Made by a program: the position numbers and the translations under genes. A DNA stretch of 48,335 nt, taken from the IMG/VR virus record IMGVR_UViG_3300000292_000047. One strand, given 5' to 3'. The notes under the pieces were generated by a model. That model saw only the letters and a list, made by a program, of their open reading frames with translations, searched no databases and was not told the origin of the DNA. Source of the stretch: a virus (lineage: Duplodnaviria; Heunggongvirae; Uroviricota; Caudoviricetes). Positions 1 through 47,256 of this stretch are shown piece after piece (within the stretch, counting starts at the first letter, position 1; each line of letters begins with the position of its first letter).

Positions 1-118
1 ATCAGATTTCTCCGGTTTAACCAGGGCGGGTATCGCTCGGTTTCGGGTATAACCTTAGGAAATTTTTTCCCACCTGTAAAGCGCTTTTTATATAAATCTA
101 TAATTATATAATTCTATG
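1..118. repeat. Copy A of ~105-bp conserved promoter/5'-leader repeat (minus-strand sense); first 54 bp identical to window end
   Basis: Near-identical to 7517-7640 and 16999-17108; contains ccggagaaatctgATG (SD + start) in minus sense and AT-rich tatataaatctataattatata block. Confidence 0.8.
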
Positions 119-701
119 CCACTTGCCAGAGAGCATCATGCAACTGGATACCTCCATTGCACTGGTTGCCCCAGCCATGCCAACCATCAGGTAAATCACC
201 GCGAGCAAACAGCTCAATACGAGGAACATCACCTAACAGCCTTACCAGCTTGTCACGAACCACATCAGGCTTCCGAGAATGCTCCAGACGAGGCGATGTA
301 AACGACTGAATGATCCCCGCATCAAGGCGGGTCGGCAATTTGCCTTTTACCGCAAACAAGCAATCTTCACTGTTTGCACGAGTCATATGCCCCATCCCCA
401 TCACCAGCTTATCTGGTTGTCGGCTACCACATTTGTTCCATGTGAAGCCCTTCATGGTCATAAGCCTGAATCCCCATGCTTTCACCACCAGCAACGCTTC
501 TTCTGGCTGAGTCGGAACCCACCACATGGCCAACAAACACGATTCAGGATTAGCAAGCTGCCAGACAGGAATACGAGCAATATCCTCAGCTTTCATCGTT
601 GGATACTTAAAACCAGCTCCACGATTCCCATCCTTACACTTATCTTTGTATTCCCAGGGGGGATCTGCATAAATCAGATTAAACAATGCAATTGCCTCCA
701 T
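114..701 (-). CDS. MT-A70 family DNA N6-adenine methyltransferase
   Basis: 195 aa; N-terminal DPPW motif (LIYADPPWEY); ATG at 699-701 checked, GGAGG upstream. Confidence 0.7.
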   Translation of the reverse strand: MEAIALFNLIYADPPWEYKDKCKDGNRGAGFKYPTMKAEDIARIPVWQLANPESCLLAMWWVPTQPEEALLVVKAWGFRLMTMKGFTWNKCGSRQPDKLVMGMGHMTRANSEDCLFAVKGKLPTRLDAGIIQSFTSPRLEHSRKPDVVRDKLVRLLGDVPRIELFARGDLPDGWHGWGNQCNGGIQLHDALWQVA

Positions 702-1008: not shown

Positions 1009-1084
1009 TGGTGGCCCCTACCGGATTTGAACCGATGACCGTGCGATTATGAGTCGCCTGCTCTAACCACTAAGCTAAGGGGCC
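1009..1084 (-). tRNA. tRNA with CAT anticodon (Met or Ile2), CCA encoded
   Basis: Minus-strand reading GGCCCCT..CTCATAA..GGTTCAAATCC..AGGGGCCACCA; 7-bp acceptor stem, T-arm ATCGG/CCGGT, anticodon loop CTCATAA. Confidence 0.8.
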
Positions 1085-11483: not shown

Positions 11484-12137
11484 ATGACTATCTCTGTAGG
11501 TATTTTCAACGGAAAAGGCGGCGTAACCAAATCAACAATTGCCCGTGCTTTAGCAGTTGCTTATGCAAAGGCCGGCTGGAATGTATGCCTGATCGATATG
11601 GATGTGCTTAACGGAACGGTAACGCGTTGGGTACAACGCAGAATGGCCAACAATATCGAACCTGCAATCGCGGCGCAGCCGTGCGGCACGCCATCACAAG
11701 TCCAGAAAATCATCGAATCAGAAGTATACGACCTGGTTATCGTCGATGGCGGTGCCTACGCATCTGAATCAGTACCGAAGCTCTCTGAATTTCTGGATAT
11801 GGTTATTTTGCCAACCAGATTCTCTACCGATGACCTAGAAACCACCGTTAACACAGCTCACGGCATCGTTAAAAAGGGTGTGCCAATCAAGAAAATTTGC
11901 ATGGTGTTCTCAGGCGCGGCTGAAAACGAAGCCGACTACATTGAAGCCCAAGAGTACCTAGCTAATACGCCATACTTTGTTGTCGATAAGTACATTCCCC
12001 ACAAGCCAGCTCTGAGCAAAGCTCAGGATAAGGGCTTAAGCCTCATTGAATGCTCATACGTTGCGCCACGCAAAAAGGCAGACGACGTTATTCAGGGGAT
12101 TATCAACCAGCTTGAGGCTCTGACTACTGCCGCGTAA
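11484..12137 (+). CDS. parA: ParA/ParF-type partition ATPase (alternative ATG at 11469)
   Basis: Deviant Walker A GKGGVTKST; MinD/ParA fold; GGAG SD before ATG 11484. Confidence 0.8.
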   Translation: MTISVGIFNGKGGVTKSTIARALAVAYAKAGWNVCLIDMDVLNGTVTRWVQRRMANNIEPAIAAQPCGTPSQVQKIIESEVYDLVIVDGGAYASESVPKLSEFLDMVILPTRFSTDDLETTVNTAHGIVKKGVPIKKICMVFSGAAENEADYIEAQEYLANTPYFVVDKYIPHKPALSKAQDKGLSLIECSYVAPRKKADDVIQGIINQLEALTTAA

Positions 12138-12180: not shown

Positions 12181-12429
12181 ATGGCCGGACCATCAAAACC
12201 ACCAAAGAAGAACAGCAAAGGCGTACCGCCATCGATCGAACAACCGCAGGTTTTCGACCCGACTGAAACGCCAACCAGAACCAAATCAGGTGGGGCACAA
12301 ATGGCGTTTAACGTCGACCCTGAATTTAAACGCGAGTACAAAACGTTCGCCAGCTCAATGGATATGTCATTGAAAGAAGTGCTGACAAAATCTTTTGAGT
12401 TACTCAAGGCTCAATACAACCAGAAGTAA
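12181..12429 (+). CDS. ParG-like ribbon-helix-helix centromere-binding protein
   Basis: 82 aa immediately after ParA; basic unstructured N-terminus then predicted beta-strand/helix segment; AGAGGGG SD. Confidence 0.55.
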   Translation: MAGPSKPPKKNSKGVPPSIEQPQVFDPTETPTRTKSGGAQMAFNVDPEFKREYKTFASSMDMSLKEVLTKSFELLKAQYNQK

Positions 12430-40117: not shown

Positions 40118-41974
40118 CTATATGGTTACGCCTTTACTTATAACTCTACGGCGTCTTCTACGTATACCTGACGAGTTCTGCACATACACATTACCTCGCA
40201 TTTCCTGTTCGGCAAGCCAGTTAAAATTAGGGTTCAGAATTTCCATCGCGGCAGTTGCATAGTTACGGCAATCAAGAGGCTCGTTACGCTCGTAGACTTT
40301 CACCCACTTTTCTTTTGTCTGCCCATTTTTATATTCAAATATTTTTTTCTCTGATAATAATCCTTTAAAGTATTCGGTATCATATCCTCTGTCAGAATCT
40401 AATGGGAAATGCATATAACCAGGACCAGGATCATGTAGTTTAATTCTTGCCATGATGGTCCCTTTACCATCATCAACCCCCAAATTAAACAACATAGCAC
40501 CCACACGGTTATTATTACTTGGCTTTCCTATAAATGGTAAACCTACCCCACCACGCCCCCTGATAGAGTATATTCGCCTTGATTCTCTCGGCTTAGTAAA
40601 GCGATATACCTCTGTCGTAAAATGCCCACCAGAGTCAATACAAACGGAAGAAATCTGTAATTTTCGACCGTCACGGAATGACCAGCTACGGAGTAAGTAT
40701 TCATCAAGTTGTTTCCAGACAACATCTTGTGCGGGATCACCTGGGAATATTTTATATTCTATCCCCCATGACTCCTTACCTTTTCCCCAACCGACCAATT
40801 CACAAACTAAATACGTGTCCTGTACGTCAACACCAGCACTTAACAATAAAACATCATCTGGTAAAAACTCTTCAAACCTTATTCTGCGTTGCAACAAGTA
40901 TTCAGGATCGATATCGTCTTTAGCATCCTCTTTCCATGGCTCACCCAGCTTAAGGTTAATAAACTCCATTAATCCATTTTTATCGCGGTTTCTGGTTGCT
41001 TCCGTAAATTCTTCAACCAGCTCTGACAATGCAACCCACGGGGAGTAAAGACTGTTAATATGAAAACCAACAATACCTTTAACTCCAGTATGTTCAGCTA
41101 TCCATACCCCCTTCGCCAACCAATCAACGTCTGGTTTACCAGATCCGCGCATAATCCCGCCGCACTCACAGCACTCATATCTGGCCGTTTCCGGTAACGC
41201 CTCACCTGAATCGCTCTTATCCCATCTGACTTGCGACCATTTCATCACCTGCATGGTGCCACAACATGGGCAAGGAACATGGTAGTAACGCTGATCGGAG
41301 AGCTTAAACCACTTGTGGATTTTGCTTGTTTCCTCCAAAACAGGAGTAGAAACAAAAACTTTCTTACGATTATGAAAGTTGGTAGTACGCTGAATACCTA
41401 GTTTTAGTGGGTCGCCCTCCTGCGTCACACCGTAACGATCAATCTCATCAGCTAACAGTATTCGAATTGGCCTGGATGCAAGACCTGCTGGGGAATTAGC
41501 ACCAACAAGTGCTATATATCCACCAGCGTAATGCTTCATACGTATAGTCGTGCTGGACTTTTTGGCTGCACCGCGCCCCTCTTTCCCTTCATGCAGCTTG
41601 TGTTTCAAACCAGGGGAATATTTGAACGTCGGATCAATACGCTCTTTTGAAAAAGCCTCAGCCGCCTCTACCGTTGGATAAATCATCAACTGAGGAGATG
41701 GCTCCTGATCTGCAAAGTAACCCATAACATTTAGCTGTAATTCGGATTTACCAATTTGCGAGCTACATTGCATCACTACTGTTTCTGTATCAGCGTCACC
41801 AATAACATCCATTGGTTCACGCAAATATGGCACTCGGCTTGTACGCCACGGCCCTGGCTCTGGAGACGTTCCCGGCGCTACATGACGATACTTATCAGCC
41901 CATTCGGAAACAGTTAGCCGTGATTTAGGGCGAAGCGCACGGAAAAAAGCGGTGCTCCATACTGTTTCGCCCAT
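40118..41974 (-). CDS. Terminase large subunit
   Basis: 618 aa; ATPase N-terminal region and nuclease C-terminal region; position. Confidence 0.85.
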   Translation of the reverse strand: MGETVWSTAFFRALRPKSRLTVSEWADKYRHVAPGTSPEPGPWRTSRVPYLREPMDVIGDADTETVVMQCSSQIGKSELQLNVMGYFADQEPSPQLMIYPTVEAAEAFSKERIDPTFKYSPGLKHKLHEGKEGRGAAKKSSTTIRMKHYAGGYIALVGANSPAGLASRPIRILLADEIDRYGVTQEGDPLKLGIQRTTNFHNRKKVFVSTPVLEETSKIHKWFKLSDQRYYHVPCPCCGTMQVMKWSQVRWDKSDSGEALPETARYECCECGGIMRGSGKPDVDWLAKGVWIAEHTGVKGIVGFHINSLYSPWVALSELVEEFTEATRNRDKNGLMEFINLKLGEPWKEDAKDDIDPEYLLQRRIRFEEFLPDDVLLLSAGVDVQDTYLVCELVGWGKGKESWGIEYKIFPGDPAQDVVWKQLDEYLLRSWSFRDGRKLQISSVCIDSGGHFTTEVYRFTKPRESRRIYSIRGRGGVGLPFIGKPSNNNRVGAMLFNLGVDDGKGTIMARIKLHDPGPGYMHFPLDSDRGYDTEYFKGLLSEKKIFEYKNGQTKEKWVKVYERNEPLDCRNYATAAMEILNPNFNWLAEQEMRGNVYVQNSSGIRRRRRRVISKGVTI

Positions 41975-41979
41975 GAGGT

Positions 41980-42531
41980 TTATTCTTCCTGCTTAATAAA
42001 TCGGGATTCCTGGAGCGCCTGAAGCGCAAAATTAATCTCGTCTTCAATAATGCGCTCGATCTCCCTGGCTGTTTTGCCTTCACAACGGGGAGCTGCTCTT
42101 GGAGCAATACTAAATAAGCGGCTACGCAATTCATTAGCTGCCAGAAATGCATCATCCCTGACCGCATCTTTAGCGATGAGAGAGCCTTCCTTTTCTTCAA
42201 ATTCAAGGCGTTTCAGCTTTGCCTGATAAATTTTTTCTGCGGTCTTAGCCTTGTTGAATTGCACCGCAACACCGGAAGTACCACCAGCTAATCCGGCATC
42301 ATCAGCGGGTAACTCTGGTTGTTCCGAAGATATCCCATGCCCTCTTTTTCCATTTTCAGCAGATACCTCACGACCAACCTGTCGGCTCGCTTCATAAGCC
42401 GCACTGGCTTTATCAAAATCCAGCTTGCCGCTTTTCAGCACTGGAATGCGACCGGAACGACAGAGCTTCGTAACCATTGCCGGAGAAATACCTTTCCGGC
42501 GGGCAAACTCTGACTTACTGACGATGGCCAT
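41980..42531 (-). CDS. Terminase small subunit (HTH)
   Basis: Track start TTG; ATG at 42529-42531; N-terminal HTH SKSEFARRKGISPAMVTKL. Confidence 0.55.
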   Translation of the reverse strand: MAIVSKSEFARRKGISPAMVTKLCRSGRIPVLKSGKLDFDKASAAYEASRQVGREVSAENGKRGHGISSEQPELPADDAGLAGGTSGVAVQFNKAKTAEKIYQAKLKRLEFEEKEGSLIAKDAVRDDAFLAANELRSRLFSIAPRAAPRCEGKTAREIERIIEDEINFALQALQESRFIKQEE

Positions 42532-43121
42532 TACTTGCAACCATTAGCAAGATACTGAACAAATCCCTCATGCGTTTCATGCGCGTCGTGGTACTGACGA
42601 TAAACATCCAGCAACAATGCAATTTCCATATCCGTCGCGGGAATACGTTCTTTATCAATAGCCAGGTACTTAATTTGAACAACAGGGGAAGAATTATCGT
42701 CTTCTTCCTGCGGCTGTTCATCGCTTAACATTTCGTCAAGCTCTGCATCATTAAACCCAAGCAGATCAATATCAAAATCATCATCCATTAACTCTTTGAC
42801 TTCTTCGGCCAGAAGCTGCATATCCCAGCCAGCATTTAAGGCCAGCTTGTTATCTGCAATCCTGTAAGCCTTCTTCTGTTTTTCAGAAAGGTTACTCAAC
42901 CGAATCGCCGGAACTTTATCCATTTCCAGAATTTCGGCTGCTGCAAGCCGACCATGCCCCGCAATCAGTTCATTCTTTTCATCGATCAGCACAGGATTAG
43001 TGAAACCGAACTCACGGATACTGTTCACCAACTGTTCAACTTGCTCATCTGAATGAGTCCGTGAATTTTTGGCATATCTGAGCAGCTTACCGACTGGTAA
43101 ATATTCGATTTTTAGAGTCAT
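42531..43121 (-). CDS. ParB-like nuclease domain protein
   Basis: 196 aa; ParB N-terminal fold motifs (LIAGHGRLAAA); paralog of 45788-46411. Confidence 0.7.
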   Translation of the reverse strand: MTLKIEYLPVGKLLRYAKNSRTHSDEQVEQLVNSIREFGFTNPVLIDEKNELIAGHGRLAAAEILEMDKVPAIRLSNLSEKQKKAYRIADNKLALNAGWDMQLLAEEVKELMDDDFDIDLLGFNDAELDEMLSDEQPQEEDDNSSPVVQIKYLAIDKERIPATDMEIALLLDVYRQYHDAHETHEGFVQYLANGCK

Positions 43122-43678
43122 TTTTTAACCACCATAACACAACAGGTTAAAGAAAACTGTTTAACTTATTGATACTAAAAGAGAAAAATGACGATCTTTT
43201 TACTCATAAAAAATCACACAAACCAGCATAATTATCTGATTTTATTAAGTTTTTATAAGTAAAAAGGATCTTGCGATGGTGTTTTGGTTAAAAGATTGGA
43301 TGTATTTGCATGATTTATAACGATTTTTATCAGAACAACATCACATTGGTTAAAGATCTGCGCGTATCTTGATGATCTAAAAGAAAATTTTCTACTTTCT
43401 TTTTACCAGCACAAATACAGCAAAAAATCACGTTTTCCCGATATTTTTCAATGAGATGAGTAAATTTCTTTTACCGCAACTTTTAACCTAACTTTTTTCA
43501 CGTTTAGCTAGCCGAACATCGGGGTTCGAATGACCCGCATCCAACGCTTTTGGCCAGAAGGACCCAATTCTGCCGGACGATGAAACGATGCTCGTGCTCA
43601 CCCACAGACAGCCAGCGAGCGACGCTACAGAACACAGTGAATACACCCTGCATAACAACACCATCAACCACACGATGA

Positions 43679-44398
43679 TTAACGAGAGAACGTCTTAGAA
43701 AGAATGTCATCAATAGCCTTTGTGACTTCATCAGCAAACGCATCCTCACCAGCACGTAGCGCCACGCCATGCCAATCAAGACGCTGCGAATAGTTAGGTT
43801 GCTGGATAAACGTAAGGATCAACGTAGGACGCCGCCCAACGCGCTGCCAGACGCCTGGTTGAAGCGGGTTACTTGTACCAGGTCGAACAACAAAAAACTC
43901 CGTAGGCTTGCCCTGACGGCGATTTTGATGCGCATCTCGCTGAACTCTTAGGCCAGATAAGACCTGCTGTAATTGCCCCCGCGAAATATTCCCGTATTTG
44001 TCCAGCTTTGCGCCGGGACCAGGAGCAAGCTGCCAGCCGTTAGGCAAATATCCACCAGCCCTTAGCGCCCCTTCTGAGCGTTTGTACTGTCGTTGGCCAC
44101 CTTCGATTTGCGGAGTCAACGTTACAGGGGCTGGCGTTCCTCCCCATTCACGAGCATACACAATGGCTGTAGGATCACTCTTCTTTGCGGCCAAAACGTA
44201 AGTAGAGTTCTGAATCCACGGCGTGGGCCTGTCAAATACCCGATTAATTTCATTCTTAATCGCAGCCTGAGAAGCCTTTGCCGTTCTGGTTGCCGCAAGC
44301 GCCATTGCGAATGGCAATTCACGTTCTTCAAGGCGCTGGAGTTGTCGTTGAATATCCTGAGAAGAAAAATCCATCTTTATCTCAATTCTGTCAGCCAC
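43679..44398 (-). CDS. Hypothetical protein
   Basis: 239 aa; GTG start with AGGAGG SD. Confidence 0.45.
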   Translation of the reverse strand: MADRIEIKMDFSSQDIQRQLQRLEERELPFAMALAATRTAKASQAAIKNEINRVFDRPTPWIQNSTYVLAAKKSDPTAIVYAREWGGTPAPVTLTPQIEGGQRQYKRSEGALRAGGYLPNGWQLAPGPGAKLDKYGNISRGQLQQVLSGLRVQRDAHQNRRQGKPTEFFVVRPGTSNPLQPGVWQRVGRRPTLILTFIQQPNYSQRLDWHGVALRAGEDAFADEVTKAIDDILSKTFSR

Positions 44399-44414
44399 CA
44401 GCGCCTCCTACACA

Positions 44415-45788
44415 CTACTTAATCAACGGCCGGAAAGCCGCCAGCACATCATCAGATCGTCCGATTGTTGAACCACCAGGCAACGGCAACTCAAACTCAA
44501 AACGAACAGCTTTCTCCAGACTCTCCCAGCGAAGAGAATCATCGTTAATAACGTGCAAATACCAGCTCTTACAGTTGAATATTGACCGCTTAATCCTGAA
44601 ACCATGTACACGACACAACTGCTTCACTTCATCATCAGAGTGAAACTTCTGGTAAAACCAGTGCCCCTTCCGGTACAACGCGGTAAAACCGTTATGATCA
44701 ATAAAATAAAGCCGGCTTTTGGAACTCGCCGCTTGTGTTTGCTTCAGGACTGTTTCCAGCTCTCCACGGCTACGACCAGAAAAGAATATTGACCCACCAG
44801 CTTTACACAGGCCTTTCAGAACCGTCAGAACAGACCATTCAGCCTCGACACTATCGACCGAGTTCAAAACGCTATCGCAAATCACGTAGTCGTAACGCCC
44901 TCGCGTTTTTAAGTCGTCCACCAGCGTATCAATCATCCGGTTTGTTGCGGTCCTATCCAGAGTGTTTCCAGCGCCCTTACGGCGGAAAAGCTCGAGATCA
45001 TGCAGGTTATATCCCTTTGCCCTGAGCATTCGCGCGTAGTCTCCCTGCCCCGAACCAAAATCAATTCCTCTTGGCGTCTTGGCAATGATCGGGAGGATCA
45101 ACGACTCATACAGGTTTGATTTCAGGCTGCCACCATTACGCAACCGCATAAGCTGCGCATACGTCTGGATGTATGTTGTTTTCTCCAGATGAGAATACTC
45201 AAATACACCATAAGTTTTATTCAGATAACTTTGGTATTTTTCCTTCTCAACATCAGGGATCACAAACACCGTTAGCGGTGTGCGCGTCATTTTCGCTGCT
45301 AATGCATACTGAGCACAGTGAATAACCTCACCAGACTGAGTAGCAACACAACCACCCCACGGACCATACTTGATAACCAGTTCCGCTATGTTCTTTCGAA
45401 CATATGCCATTTTCGCGCGCATATTGCCTGAGATCTGGCTTGCCGATACCTGAACAAAACCATGCTTATCTTCCAGACCGGACACCCTGCAACGCTCATC
45501 TCCGCTATCAAAATCCGTTCCGTTATGCAGTTGGTTAAACCGTACTTCGTCGTATACCGTCGTTTCACAGGGCAACACATACACCGCAGCACGCGTTATT
45601 CCCAACTTACGTAGCGCCTTCGTCCTTTGGTGTCCCGCCACCAGCAAATCGCCGCGCACTATCAATGGCTTCACAAGCCCCAGCTCCCTGACGCTTTCCG
45701 CCAGCCTCGCAAGATCATCCTCACCGATAAAACGCGGGTTATATTCCGCGCCGCGTAGGTGCGTTATGTCGTAATTCAGGTGAAGCAT
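44415..45788 (-). CDS. ParB-like domain fused to class I SAM-dependent methyltransferase
   Basis: N-terminal ParB-like region (LVAGHQRTKAL); C-terminal GIDFGSGQGDYA motif I; ATG 45786-45788 with GGAGG SD, TGATG coupling to upstream gene. Confidence 0.7.
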   Translation of the reverse strand: MLHLNYDITHLRGAEYNPRFIGEDDLARLAESVRELGLVKPLIVRGDLLVAGHQRTKALRKLGITRAAVYVLPCETTVYDEVRFNQLHNGTDFDSGDERCRVSGLEDKHGFVQVSASQISGNMRAKMAYVRKNIAELVIKYGPWGGCVATQSGEVIHCAQYALAAKMTRTPLTVFVIPDVEKEKYQSYLNKTYGVFEYSHLEKTTYIQTYAQLMRLRNGGSLKSNLYESLILPIIAKTPRGIDFGSGQGDYARMLRAKGYNLHDLELFRRKGAGNTLDRTATNRMIDTLVDDLKTRGRYDYVICDSVLNSVDSVEAEWSVLTVLKGLCKAGGSIFFSGRSRGELETVLKQTQAASSKSRLYFIDHNGFTALYRKGHWFYQKFHSDDEVKQLCRVHGFRIKRSIFNCKSWYLHVINDDSLRWESLEKAVRFEFELPLPGGSTIGRSDDVLAAFRPLIK

Positions 45789-46411
45789 CAGCACACCTCC
45801 CCAGCCAGCAATGCGGATACAAATCCGATATAGCTGCCATTATCATCAACATAACGAGACACCGCGCAGTCAAAACGATCCGCTTCCTCATCCGTTGCCG
45901 GGATTTTATGACCTCCAAATGACAGGTACTGAACTTTTACGCCTGATTTGGCCTCATCCTTCTCAAATGGGATATCCATACCCTCTGTGTCATCGTAGAC
46001 CGCCGCACTCAATAAGTTATCCAGTTCGCGCTGAGTAAAACCAATTGAGTCCAGAGCAAAATCATCGGCCGCAAGATCTGCAAGCTCCGCGCTTAACAAC
46101 TCTTCATCCCAACCAGCATTCAGCGGAATACGGTTGTCGGCCAGACGATATGCCTTCTTCTGATTCTCCGTTAGCCCAGCCAGAACAATGCAGGGAACAT
46201 CATCCATCCCCAACTGAGTGGCCGCAGCAATTCGACCATGACCAGCAATTACAACGTTGTTCTCGTCTATCAGGATCGGATTAGTCCATCCGTACTCCTG
46301 TATGCTGGCAACAATCTGATCTACCTGCTCCACGGAGTGTGTGCGAGCGTTCTTTTCATAACCAATCAACACAGAAAGTGGTAAAGAAACCACATTAAGA
46401 TGTTTTGTCAT
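45788..46411 (-). CDS. ParB-like nuclease domain protein
   Basis: 207 aa; VIAGHGRIAAA; shares C-terminal region with 42531-43121. Confidence 0.7.
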   Translation of the reverse strand: MTKHLNVVSLPLSVLIGYEKNARTHSVEQVDQIVASIQEYGWTNPILIDENNVVIAGHGRIAAATQLGMDDVPCIVLAGLTENQKKAYRLADNRIPLNAGWDEELLSAELADLAADDFALDSIGFTQRELDNLLSAAVYDDTEGMDIPFEKDEAKSGVKVQYLSFGGHKIPATDEEADRFDCAVSRYVDDNGSYIGFVSALLAGEVC

Positions 46412-46645
46412 GCCGTTTATCCGCTAAAATCCCCTCGCTTGTGCAAGCAAGTGGGCCTCGGTTTGTATCCACGGCACCCTGTGGGTATGAATGACTGTCG
46501 TCAGGTCGCAACTGACGGCGGTCGCCCACCTTCCAGTAATAAAAAAGCCACCAGCATTAACTCCACAGCGAGCTGGAGTTAATGAGGCAGCTTTGGTTTG
46601 CGCATTATCGCAGCCCCTGGTAAGCACAAGAGCTGCTGTAATGCG

Positions 46646-47056
46646 TTACGCAGGGATCAAACGGATGCGGCCGTTATTTACCTCAATACGAGAGTATTCC
46701 GGCTTACCATCAACGATTCCAGTAATGACAAGTTCGCCATCAGACGAGCATTCTTCTTTGTCGTCTTCAAGTACCGCGCCTTCTGGCAAATCAACACAGG
46801 CAAAAACAGGGCAGCCTGGATAACGATCATCTTCCATCGCAATCAACATCGATTCACCGAACCACTCTGTGGTAGCACGACCATCAGCCGCCTGATAGTG
46901 AATCAAATACTGGTTTTCGCCATTTGCATACTGAGCACGGGCTTGAACTTCTCCCCACTCTTCACTGATACGCATTGTTACCAGTTGGGATAATTCAAAC
47001 TTAAACGGAACAGACTCTGCACCAATGGCAATCGGTTTATCTTCTTTCTTTTCCAT
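46646..47056 (-). CDS. Hypothetical protein (internally duplicated domain?)
   Basis: 136 aa, ATG verified. Confidence 0.45.
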   Translation of the reverse strand: MEKKEDKPIAIGAESVPFKFELSQLVTMRISEEWGEVQARAQYANGENQYLIHYQAADGRATTEWFGESMLIAMEDDRYPGCPVFACVDLPEGAVLEDDKEECSSDGELVITGIVDGKPEYSRIEVNNGRIRLIPA

Positions 47057-47103
47057 AACATCACCTGAAAATAAAAGCCCCGCGACACGCGAGGCTGTAA
47101 GAG

Positions 47104-47256
47104 TTACTTTCGATAGAAATCAAGGCGCATTTGCTCCCGCTTAAGCCGAAAAGCTCTCTGCGCCACTAAGATGCGCCACAGGACACCAGCAATAACCACC
47201 AGCGAGATACAAAAACACACAGCCACAACCATCAGAAAAATGCCAAGACCATTCAT
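47104..47256 (-). CDS. Unannotated small membrane peptide (50 aa)
   Basis: Hand translation: MNGLGIFLMVVAVCFCISLVVIAGVLWRILVAQRAFRLKREQMRLDFYRK; ATGA overlap with stop of 47253-47465; below track size cut-off. Confidence 0.4.
   Translation of the reverse strand: MNGLGIFLMVVAVCFCISLVVIAGVLWRILVAQRAFRLKREQMRLDFYRK

Follow-up and report, generated by a model that had tools for sequence, protein, structure and literature searches.

The virus genome with IMG/VR record IMGVR_UViG_3300000292_000047 (Caudoviricetes), analysed here as a single window of 48,335 bp, carries in its late region a small ParB-fold protein, called ParB1 in the following, and directly behind it a fusion of a ParB-like domain with an S-adenosylmethionine (SAM)-dependent methyltransferase. 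Together they form a two-gene cassette that recurs ahead of terminase genes in phages of different bacterial phyla. The favoured reading, to which a probability of roughly 45% is given, is that the pair is a late DNA-modification module, gated by nucleoside triphosphate (NTP) and assisted by ParB, that places a protective and probably non-canonical mark. An earlier note on this DNA had proposed a module of three ParB-like genes upstream of the terminase. The region was correctly chosen, but the conserved unit is the small ParB and the fusion, and the third gene (ParB2) is split from them by a probable cos site and a gene for a 239-aa (amino acid) protein that the note had left out. A domain search finds Pfam ParB_N in all three open reading frames, as the note had expected:

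45788..46411, minus strand: ParB1, small acidic ParB/Srx-fold protein, 207 aa; ParB_N E 4e-5, phrog_620 E 4e-74
44415..45788, minus strand: ParB-methyltransferase fusion, 457 aa; ParB_N E 3e-5, Methyltransf_23 at residues 233-400 E 8e-8, phrog_5475 E 4e-265
42531..43121, minus strand: ParB2, paralogue of ParB1, 196 aa; ParB_N E 4e-8, phrog_620 E 5e-75

The pairing was surveyed in 77 IMG/VR loci, of which 62 could be evaluated for the upstream gene and 58 for a terminase downstream. In at least 51 of the 62, the gene immediately before the fusion encodes a small ParB with the same type of C-terminal tail, and several of the apparent exceptions are scoring artefacts or have the ParB gene within 1 kb. 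The same arrangement, with a ParB_N protein of ~200 aa, is found in all seven independently fetched Proteobacteria loci, and Bacteroides phage BS-TP3 (35% identity) also has a small ParB_N protein directly upstream of its fusion. The two genes are tightly joined: the stop codon of the small ParB and the start of the fusion overlap or are no more than 5 nt apart in 27 of 31 loci, and in the window they overlap as TGATG. Downstream of the cassette, a terminase on the same strand follows at 0.5-3.6 kb in 50 of the 58 loci; a small panel of large terminase subunits (TerL) detected it in 34 loci (median 1.1 kb from the fusion), and Pfam added 16. These terminases belong to at least five families, namely GpA, PF03354/PF20441, Terminase_6, Terminase_3 and one that has no Pfam model and stands beside a Terminase_2 small subunit. 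The cassette is also present in integrated chromosomal prophages. DNA-modification genes hold the same slot before the terminase in other phages, which is counted in favour of a modification role.

The fusion protein consists of a ParB_N fold (residues 1-95), a second alpha/beta domain (96-195) and a class I SAM methyltransferase with a C-terminal alpha/beta subdomain (196-457). An AlphaFold2 model built on 46 homologues has a mean predicted confidence (pLDDT) of 93 and a predicted TM-score (pTM) of 0.89, with the Rossmann-like fold at pLDDT >90. The family phrog_5475, for which the function label is "unknown", spans residues 3-459 of a 459-aa open reading frame with a GTG start that exceeds the 457-aa gene by 2 aa. 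The N-terminus is a distant ParB domain, with 28% identity to ParB1 over 74 aa, and the ParB boxes are conserved in modified form: YNPR, then GHQR aligned to the GERR of Spo0J, then E81..R83.N85Q86. Box II reads GHQRTKA, so that only the final Arg is kept relative to GERRxRA. The middle domain shows the same order of secondary structure as the first one in the model; a tandem ParB, with 96-195 as a repeat of 1-95, was rejected at an hhalign probability of 0.4%. When the fusion was used for a fold search of BFVD, no full-length structural relative was found (TMq <=0.32), only generic methyltransferase and ParB/Srx domain matches.

In the methyltransferase part, motif I (GIDFGSGQGD) occupies residues 242-251. 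D243, F244, G245 and G247 are invariant among the homologues, as is E266, the acidic residue after beta2, and the motif after beta4 is CDSVLNSVD. There are at least 716 full-length homologues, and among the matches listed most cover 97-100% of the query; 72 alignment columns are invariant. Neither the fusion nor any of the 46 aligned homologues contains motif IV of the form [DNS]PP[YFWH]; a DPPW motif is present in the MT-A70 gene of the same genome. The earlier description of this gene, a ParB-like N-terminus joined to a class I methyltransferase that has no DPPY, thus stands, with Pfam and phrog_5475 agreeing. C5-cytosine methyltransferase features (PCQ and ENV motifs, fold match) were also looked for, and the fusion does not show them. 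As the catalytic domain has neither amino-methyltransferase nor C5 motifs, the mark is probably not m6A, m4C or m5C. Methylation of a ring nitrogen, of the m7G, m3C or m1A type, needs no DPPY or PCQ motif.

A HMMER full-database search with the methyltransferase part alone returned 398 clusters at 50% identity, from phages of Proteobacteria, Bacteroidota and Firmicutes. Nearly all of them are ~460 aa long with the domain at the same position, and this methyltransferase clade is therefore confined to the fusion. Since the clade is fusion-only, catalysis and the ParB domain are obligately linked.

The two small ParBs are paralogues, as had been noted earlier, and share their C-terminal region: they are 48% identical over 201 aligned positions, which is about the whole length and includes the C-terminal ~50 residues (E 4e-62). 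ParB2 has the same architecture and the same tail class as ParB1. It is about equally far from ParB1 (50%) and from the partner ParBs of other phages (32-47%), which argues that it is not a recent duplicate; ParB1 is 37-49% identical to these partners. The search for ParB2 homologues was saturated by near-identical Escherichia coli sequences, and was repeated with a distant partner ParB to obtain diversity. A second copy of the ParB2 type was seen only in the phage lineage of the window (IMG/VR loci L021-L023 and L026). Further small ParB copies of the same tail class occur as a tandem pair upstream of the fusion in L076 (4798-6065), and once ~4 kb upstream of it in L048 (1574-2230).

The model of ParB1 (pLDDT 85) has the ParB fold at residues 7-94, three helices at 103-142, a low-confidence linker at 145-155, modelled as disordered and acidic, and a C-terminal domain at 161-202, which is a small beta-beta-alpha-alpha unit of 45 residues. 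The helical region of the small ParB is strongly acidic (pI 4.1, with a single Lys or Arg); the middle and methyltransferase domains of the fusion are basic (pI 9.1-9.3). Box II in ParB1 and ParB2 is GHGR(L/I)AA, and again the final Arg alone is retained from GERRxRA. No helix-turn-helix (HTH) domain was matched by Pfam in any of the three ParB-fold proteins, and the ParB1 model has three short helices in that place. NCBIfam gave only sub-threshold matches to ParB and Noc, with TIGR00180 scores of 16-40 bits against a cut-off of 58.45. In both small ParBs, residues 1 to ~145 are homologous to a module that is fused to N6/N4 DNA methylases in phages and plasmids. The respective E-values are 3e-37 and 4e-40 for the PADLOC model MTase_II and 1.7e-50 and 3.3e-52 for phrog_498, and tblastn matches of the small ParBs coincide with DNA methylases annotated in phages of Streptococcus, Vibrio, Psychrobacter, Wolbachia and others. 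PADLOC assigned the proteins to no defence system; it matched just the ParB module of the type II methyltransferase.

When diverse small ParBs are aligned, one common N-module is found with at least three alternative C-terminal tails. Tail class a is that of ParB1, ParB2 and every examined partner of a phrog_5475 fusion. Tail class b is found in the IMG/VR locus L018 (5001-9041), where the small ParB is followed by a DpdA-like homologue of queuine tRNA-ribosyltransferase, FolE, QueD, a QueE-like radical-SAM protein, the small terminase subunit (TerS) and a GpA-type TerL; judged by its genes, this cluster is a phage 7-deazaguanine DNA-modification cassette. Tail class c, in L016, precedes a divergent phrog_5475 fusion and a separate Methyltransf_11 gene. 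As the tail classes track different partner genes, the tail of the small ParB behaves like a partner-specific adaptor in these comparisons.

Several known systems resemble the cassette in part. A survey published in PNAS in 2025 lists the combination of a ParB-CTPase domain and Methyltransf_23 (PF02195+PF13489) as an architecture enriched in phages and prophages, and in the sections that deal with such fusions they are labelled predicted DNA methyltransferases with a possible anti-defence role, and are catalogued only; bacterial fusions of ParB with SAM methyltransferases are stated there to bind ATP (PMC12704722). The fusion in the window has the same architecture as the surveyed one, which corresponds to phrog_5475, and those sections of the survey make no mention of a small-ParB partner or of a position next to the terminase (PMC12704722). 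A full-text literature search found no other paper that names both Methyltransf_23 and ParB.

In the bacterial Dpd system, insertion of preQ0 into DNA by DpdA requires ATP hydrolysis by the ParB-like DpdB (PMC10164549), and mycobacteriophage CRB2 has the gene order ParB-like ORF1, DpdA-like ORF2, que genes, TerS and TerL (PMC6392294). The likeness to DpdA/DpdB and its phage versions lies in a ParB-superfamily gene directly upstream of the modifying enzyme and in the same orientation, in phages ahead of TerS and TerL. The partner enzyme in the window differs from the transglycosylase DpdA in being a SAM methyltransferase that carries its own ParB domain. Box II is GHGR or GHQR, and not DGQQR as in DpdB, and in place of the large SspE-like helical C-domain of DpdB the small ParB has only its short beta-beta-alpha-alpha tail. 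A second precedent is given by phage ParBs that activate cognate thymine dioxygenases (5mYOX; PNAS 2026, PMC13229309). These consist of a nucleotide-binding domain, a helix-helix region, a linker and a C-terminal domain, and have no DNA-binding domain. The predicted structure of ParB1 appears to share this layout, with an unstructured linker and no recognisable DNA-binding domain, and just as the partner of the 5mYOX ParBs is a post-replicative DNA-modifying enzyme, the gene for ParB1 stands beside a predicted modifying enzyme. Here, however, the neighbour is a methyltransferase fusion, and the RefSeq annotation of a near-identical plasmid contains no iron/2-oxoglutarate (Fe/2OG) thymine dioxygenase gene.

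The fusions of ParB with N6_N4 methyltransferases (phrog_498, PADLOC MTase_II, for example Bce_0392 of Bacillus cereus) share their N-module with ParB1 and ParB2 (E 1e-37 to 1e-52), but ParB1 and ParB2 have no catalytic domain, and the catalytic domain of the fusion comes from another methyltransferase family that has no DPPY and is preceded by an only distantly related ParB domain. With the canonical CTP clamps ParB, Noc and KorB, the window proteins have the N-terminal fold and the general three-box nucleotide-binding layout in common; they differ in the altered Box II, in that no HTH was detected, and in having no link to ParA and no partition context. The HNH accessory nucleases of terminases (HK97 gp74-like) are similar in position alone, as Pfam and PHROGs find no HNH domain in the three window proteins.

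From this comparative context we infer a DNA-modification function, with DNA as the substrate, activation by ParB1 and an anti-defence role. ParB1 and the fusion would then be a two-component, nucleotide-regulated methylation module that is expressed late and whose target is phage DNA that has been replicated and is about to be packaged. The basic fusion protein would provide SAM-dependent catalysis and probably contact with nucleic acid. The small acidic ParB1 would be an NTP-binding activator or loader that docks via its cassette-specific tail, via its own ParB N-domain, or both, in a role modelled on that of DpdB for DpdA and of the phage ParBs for thymine dioxygenases. The likely benefit would be that injected DNA is shielded from host nucleases or other defences. 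At the left end of the genome, ParB2 could be an additional activator gene, co-translated with TerS. A bolder and less likely version is that the fusion is the first known representative of a new class of DNA methyltransferases, with a non-canonical mark (for example on a ring nitrogen, as in m7G, m3C or m1A, or on the backbone), and that it is active only when the small ParB NTPase loads or activates it. If true, DpdAB and ParB-5mYOX would be joined by a third type of DNA modification that a ParB assists.

The remaining genes of the region, and the gap between them, are arranged as follows:

43679..44398, minus strand: gene for a 239-aa protein; matches phrog_1924 ("minor tail protein") with E 2.5e-97 and nothing in Pfam
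43122..43678: 558-bp non-coding gap, probably including the cos region
41980..42531, minus strand: TerS, 183 aa; phrog_57 E 7e-42, and RefSeq annotation of the ATCC 25922 plasmid
40118..41974, minus strand: TerL of the lambda gpA type (cos-cutting); GpA_ATPase E 7e-76, GpA_nuclease E 1e-84

All of these genes, together with ParB1, the fusion and ParB2, are read from the minus strand in the late region. Translational coupling, as proposed earlier for the ParB-like genes, is indicated by the overlap between ParB1 and the fusion and by that between the stop codon of ParB2 and the ATG of TerS (TAATG), but it does not extend across the whole set: ParB1 and the fusion are separated from ParB2, TerS and TerL by the 239-aa gene and the 558-bp gap. 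The 239-aa gene starts 16 nt after the fusion and is preceded by AGGAGG. It lacks conservation at this place in other loci, where unrelated genes follow the fusion, and is outside the conserved cassette. Despite its "minor tail protein" label it sits far from the tail genes. A homologue with 30% identity is encoded directly upstream of the small ParB in L018; L016 has a Minor_tail_Z protein in the corresponding place, with no BLASTP similarity to the 239-aa protein.

The gap probably contains the site at which the genome is cut. The records of the Yersinia pestis phages vB_YpM_39 and vB_YpM_44 break within it, on the two sides of GGTCATTCGAAC between ...GGATGCG and CCCGATG..., exactly 12 nt apart. 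An offset of this size is typical of a 12-nt cohesive end and is consistent with the lambda gpA-type TerL, so that cosN is probably at 43524-43535, with GGTCATTCGAAC (in minus-strand reading) as the cohesive end. With cosN inside the gap, the left end of the virion DNA would open with ParB2, TerS and TerL, and the right end would close with ParB1, the fusion and the 239-aa gene. All five exact matches to GGTTAAARR in the 48-kb genome fall within 43122-43488, an AT-rich stretch of ~370 bp between the inferred cos and the start of ParB2, and occur there in both orientations. The clustering suggests a candidate cosB-like array of protein-binding sites, for TerS or for ParB2. vB_YpM_44 lacks ~90 bp of the AT-rich, cos-proximal gap (about 43310-43400 of the window), which are kept in the window, in vB_YpM_39 and in the ATCC 25922 plasmid. 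A sigma-70 promoter scan of 42400-47200 gave fewer promoter-like sites in total than expected by chance, and none of them lay in the gap. In the same stretch a terminator scan found a single strong terminator-like hairpin at 47096-47076 on the minus strand (stem of 9 bp with 7 GC pairs, T-rich tail), because of which late transcription into the cassette would need read-through or antitermination. The hairpin lies upstream of a 136-aa gene, which in turn precedes ParB1.

Taken as a whole, the window represents the entire genome, in circularly permuted form, of a phage-plasmid of the myovirus type. Its 4.1-kb section 42400-46500 is 99.3-99.5% identical to ~48-kb E. coli plasmids, including the ATCC 25922 plasmid NZ_CP009073.1, and is found in 74 of 5,426 complete E. 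coli genomes, where 78 of 81 places are plasmid-borne. The same section is 99% identical to the Y. pestis phages vB_YpM_39, 41 and 44, and to one induced E. coli phage. The Yersinia "pseudolysogenic" phage HQ103, of 32 kb, is unrelated. According to its RefSeq annotation, the ATCC 25922 plasmid has RepA, ParA, a CI-like repressor, lysis genes, a tRNA, an MT-A70 methyltransferase, lambda-type head genes and P2-type tail genes. The single tRNA of the window (1009-1084, minus strand, CAU anticodon) is called tRNA-Met by ARAGORN and, on the ATCC 25922 plasmid, tRNA-Ile in RefSeq. Three further genes of the element bear on the discussion below:

11484-12134, plus strand: ParA, RefSeq annotation, ~30 kb from the ParB genes
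about 12181-12426, plus strand: small protein of 82 aa directly downstream of ParA, candidate ParA partner
114-701, minus strand: stand-alone methyltransferase of the MT-A70 family with canonical DPPW motif

The 82-aa protein looks ribbon-helix-helix-like when its sequence is judged by eye, and together with ParA it is the putative partition locus of the plasmid itself. The MT-A70 gene lies ~2 kb upstream of the ParB1 region in the same transcriptional direction, and archaeal ParB-MT-A70 fusions are on record in the survey (PMC12704722). It could be a further client of the small ParBs.

DNA modification is the best supported function when the pairing, the position before the terminase, the N-module of DNA methylases, the sister cassettes, the published precedents, the charge pattern and the fusion-only clade are taken together. 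What weighs against it is the catalytic fold, which resembles small-molecule and tRNA/RNA methyltransferases and not known DNA methyltransferases. This makes a non-DNA substrate the chief rival, although an unlikely one: the fusion could methylate a protein, an RNA (tRNA or rRNA), or a nucleotide or a signal derived from one. In that case the ParB/Srx domains would bind nucleotides or work in a kinase-like way, as those of sulfiredoxin, SerK and SbnI do, and would not be DNA-associated clamps, and the cassette would be an accessory for anti-defence or host takeover that stands by chance in the slot before the terminase. Against this stands a tight terminase linkage across phyla, which fits an activity on packaging-ready DNA. 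Moreover, the N-module of the small ParB is the one fused to bona fide DNA methylases, sister ParBs accompany DNA modification of the DpdA type, and the non-ParB domains of the fusion are basic. The earlier note had left the choice between DNA modification or anti-restriction and a packaging-associated role. Comparative context speaks for the former, and the diversity of the adjoining terminases disfavours a dedicated role in packaging. It is quite improbable that the ParB-like proteins, chiefly ParB2, are packaging accessories that bind or nick near cos or pac in the manner of HK97-like HNH proteins. No gene lies between the inferred cos and ParB2, whose translation is coupled to that of TerS, the GGTTAAARR repeats cluster between cos and ParB2, and in several phages, Rhodobacter RcDormio and Vibrio X29 among them, the left end begins with a ParB-like gene. 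Nicking has been reported for one ParB-methylase (cited in PMC5512222), and the cassette does adjoin a terminase in most loci (50 of 58). But these terminases, some of them cos-cutting and others headful, represent at least five families that are not related to each other, which argues against a specific partnership, the ParB2 copy is confined to the lineage of the window, and the repeats are equally explicable as TerS sites like those of lambda cosB. To our knowledge no SAM methyltransferase has a role in packaging, which also counts against this explanation. A packaging-accessory role is possible mainly for ParB2, which is placed between cos and TerS.

Two further functions have been associated with proteins of this fold. 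The historical label "ParB-like nuclease" in Pfam and in annotations, which the earlier note had taken over in its wording, would suggest that the proteins degrade or nick the DNA of the host or of competitors, and nuclease activity has been reported for Osa, some ParB homologues and Bce_0392 (summarised in PMC5512222). For the window proteins this is judged very improbable. The word "nuclease" in this label is a legacy Pfam domain name. A role as plasmid-partition ParBs that act on parS of the phage-plasmid is effectively refuted. RepA and ParA are encoded on the element, a plasmid prophage, and all three proteins contain ParB_N, as such a role would have it, but no HTH domain and no ParA-binding N-terminal motif were detected in them, Box II is GHGR or GHQR and not GERR, and the TIGR00180 scores given above are far under the cut-off. 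ParA has its own small ribbon-helix-helix-like partner directly downstream, ~30 kb from the ParB genes, and the cassette also occurs in integrated chromosomal prophages. The earlier note had named homology to chromosome-partition proteins with canonical parS sites as the finding that would speak against its proposal; the only parS-like candidate seen is the GGTTAAARR cluster next to cos, which would be more simply explained as a cosB-type array than as parS repeats.

Part of this is already known: the architecture of the fusion has been catalogued, and the principle of a ParB-fold helper for a DNA-modifying enzyme is established. The fixed pairing of the fusion with a tail-matched small ParB and the near-universal position of the cassette ahead of terminases are not described in the literature cited here. 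The same applies to a methyltransferase clade that is fusion-only and outside the known types of DNA methyltransferases, and to the modular tails, a pattern by which this ParB module is tied to 7-deazaguanine cassettes as well. A general role as helpers of DNA-modifying enzymes is emerging for ParB-fold NTPases, and the cassette would carry this principle over to a family of methyltransferases for which known DNA methyltransferases do not allow the chemistry to be predicted. It may write a mark that standard methylome pipelines and restriction-modification catalogues overlook. If the substrate is not DNA, the pair would instead be a novel enzyme for anti-defence or host takeover, together with a nucleotide-binding regulator of an unusual type. 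In either case, the presence of the cassette on a phage-plasmid of the reference strain E. coli ATCC 25922 makes genetics, mass spectrometry of virion DNA and challenge with defence systems feasible at once.

Some genes were found next to the cassette in individual loci. A gene for a protein of 144-154 aa stands next to the fusion in four of them (L003:9419-9883, L005:2210-2644, L011:7412-7867 and L013:6255-6698, the last on the minus strand). The protein has the motif F(R/K)YFW.K...F....HCA.CL.G.Y (HCAxCL), the L005 copy had no Pfam or PHROG match, and the window has no such gene. In a lambdoid prophage of E. coli (L007/L008:6997-7233), a gene with a Pfam match to the Acb2/Tad1-hairpin family, an anti-CBASS/anti-Thoeris family, lies directly upstream of the cassette. 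Amidoligase_2 genes flank the cassette in Bradyrhizobium chromosomes (L003/L004), in a metagenome-assembled genome of Xanthobacteraceae (L012) and in a metagenome contig (L011). GGACT/AIG2 genes are also found beside it in L003/L004 and L012, and L003/L004 have an MTS-type methyltransferase nearby.

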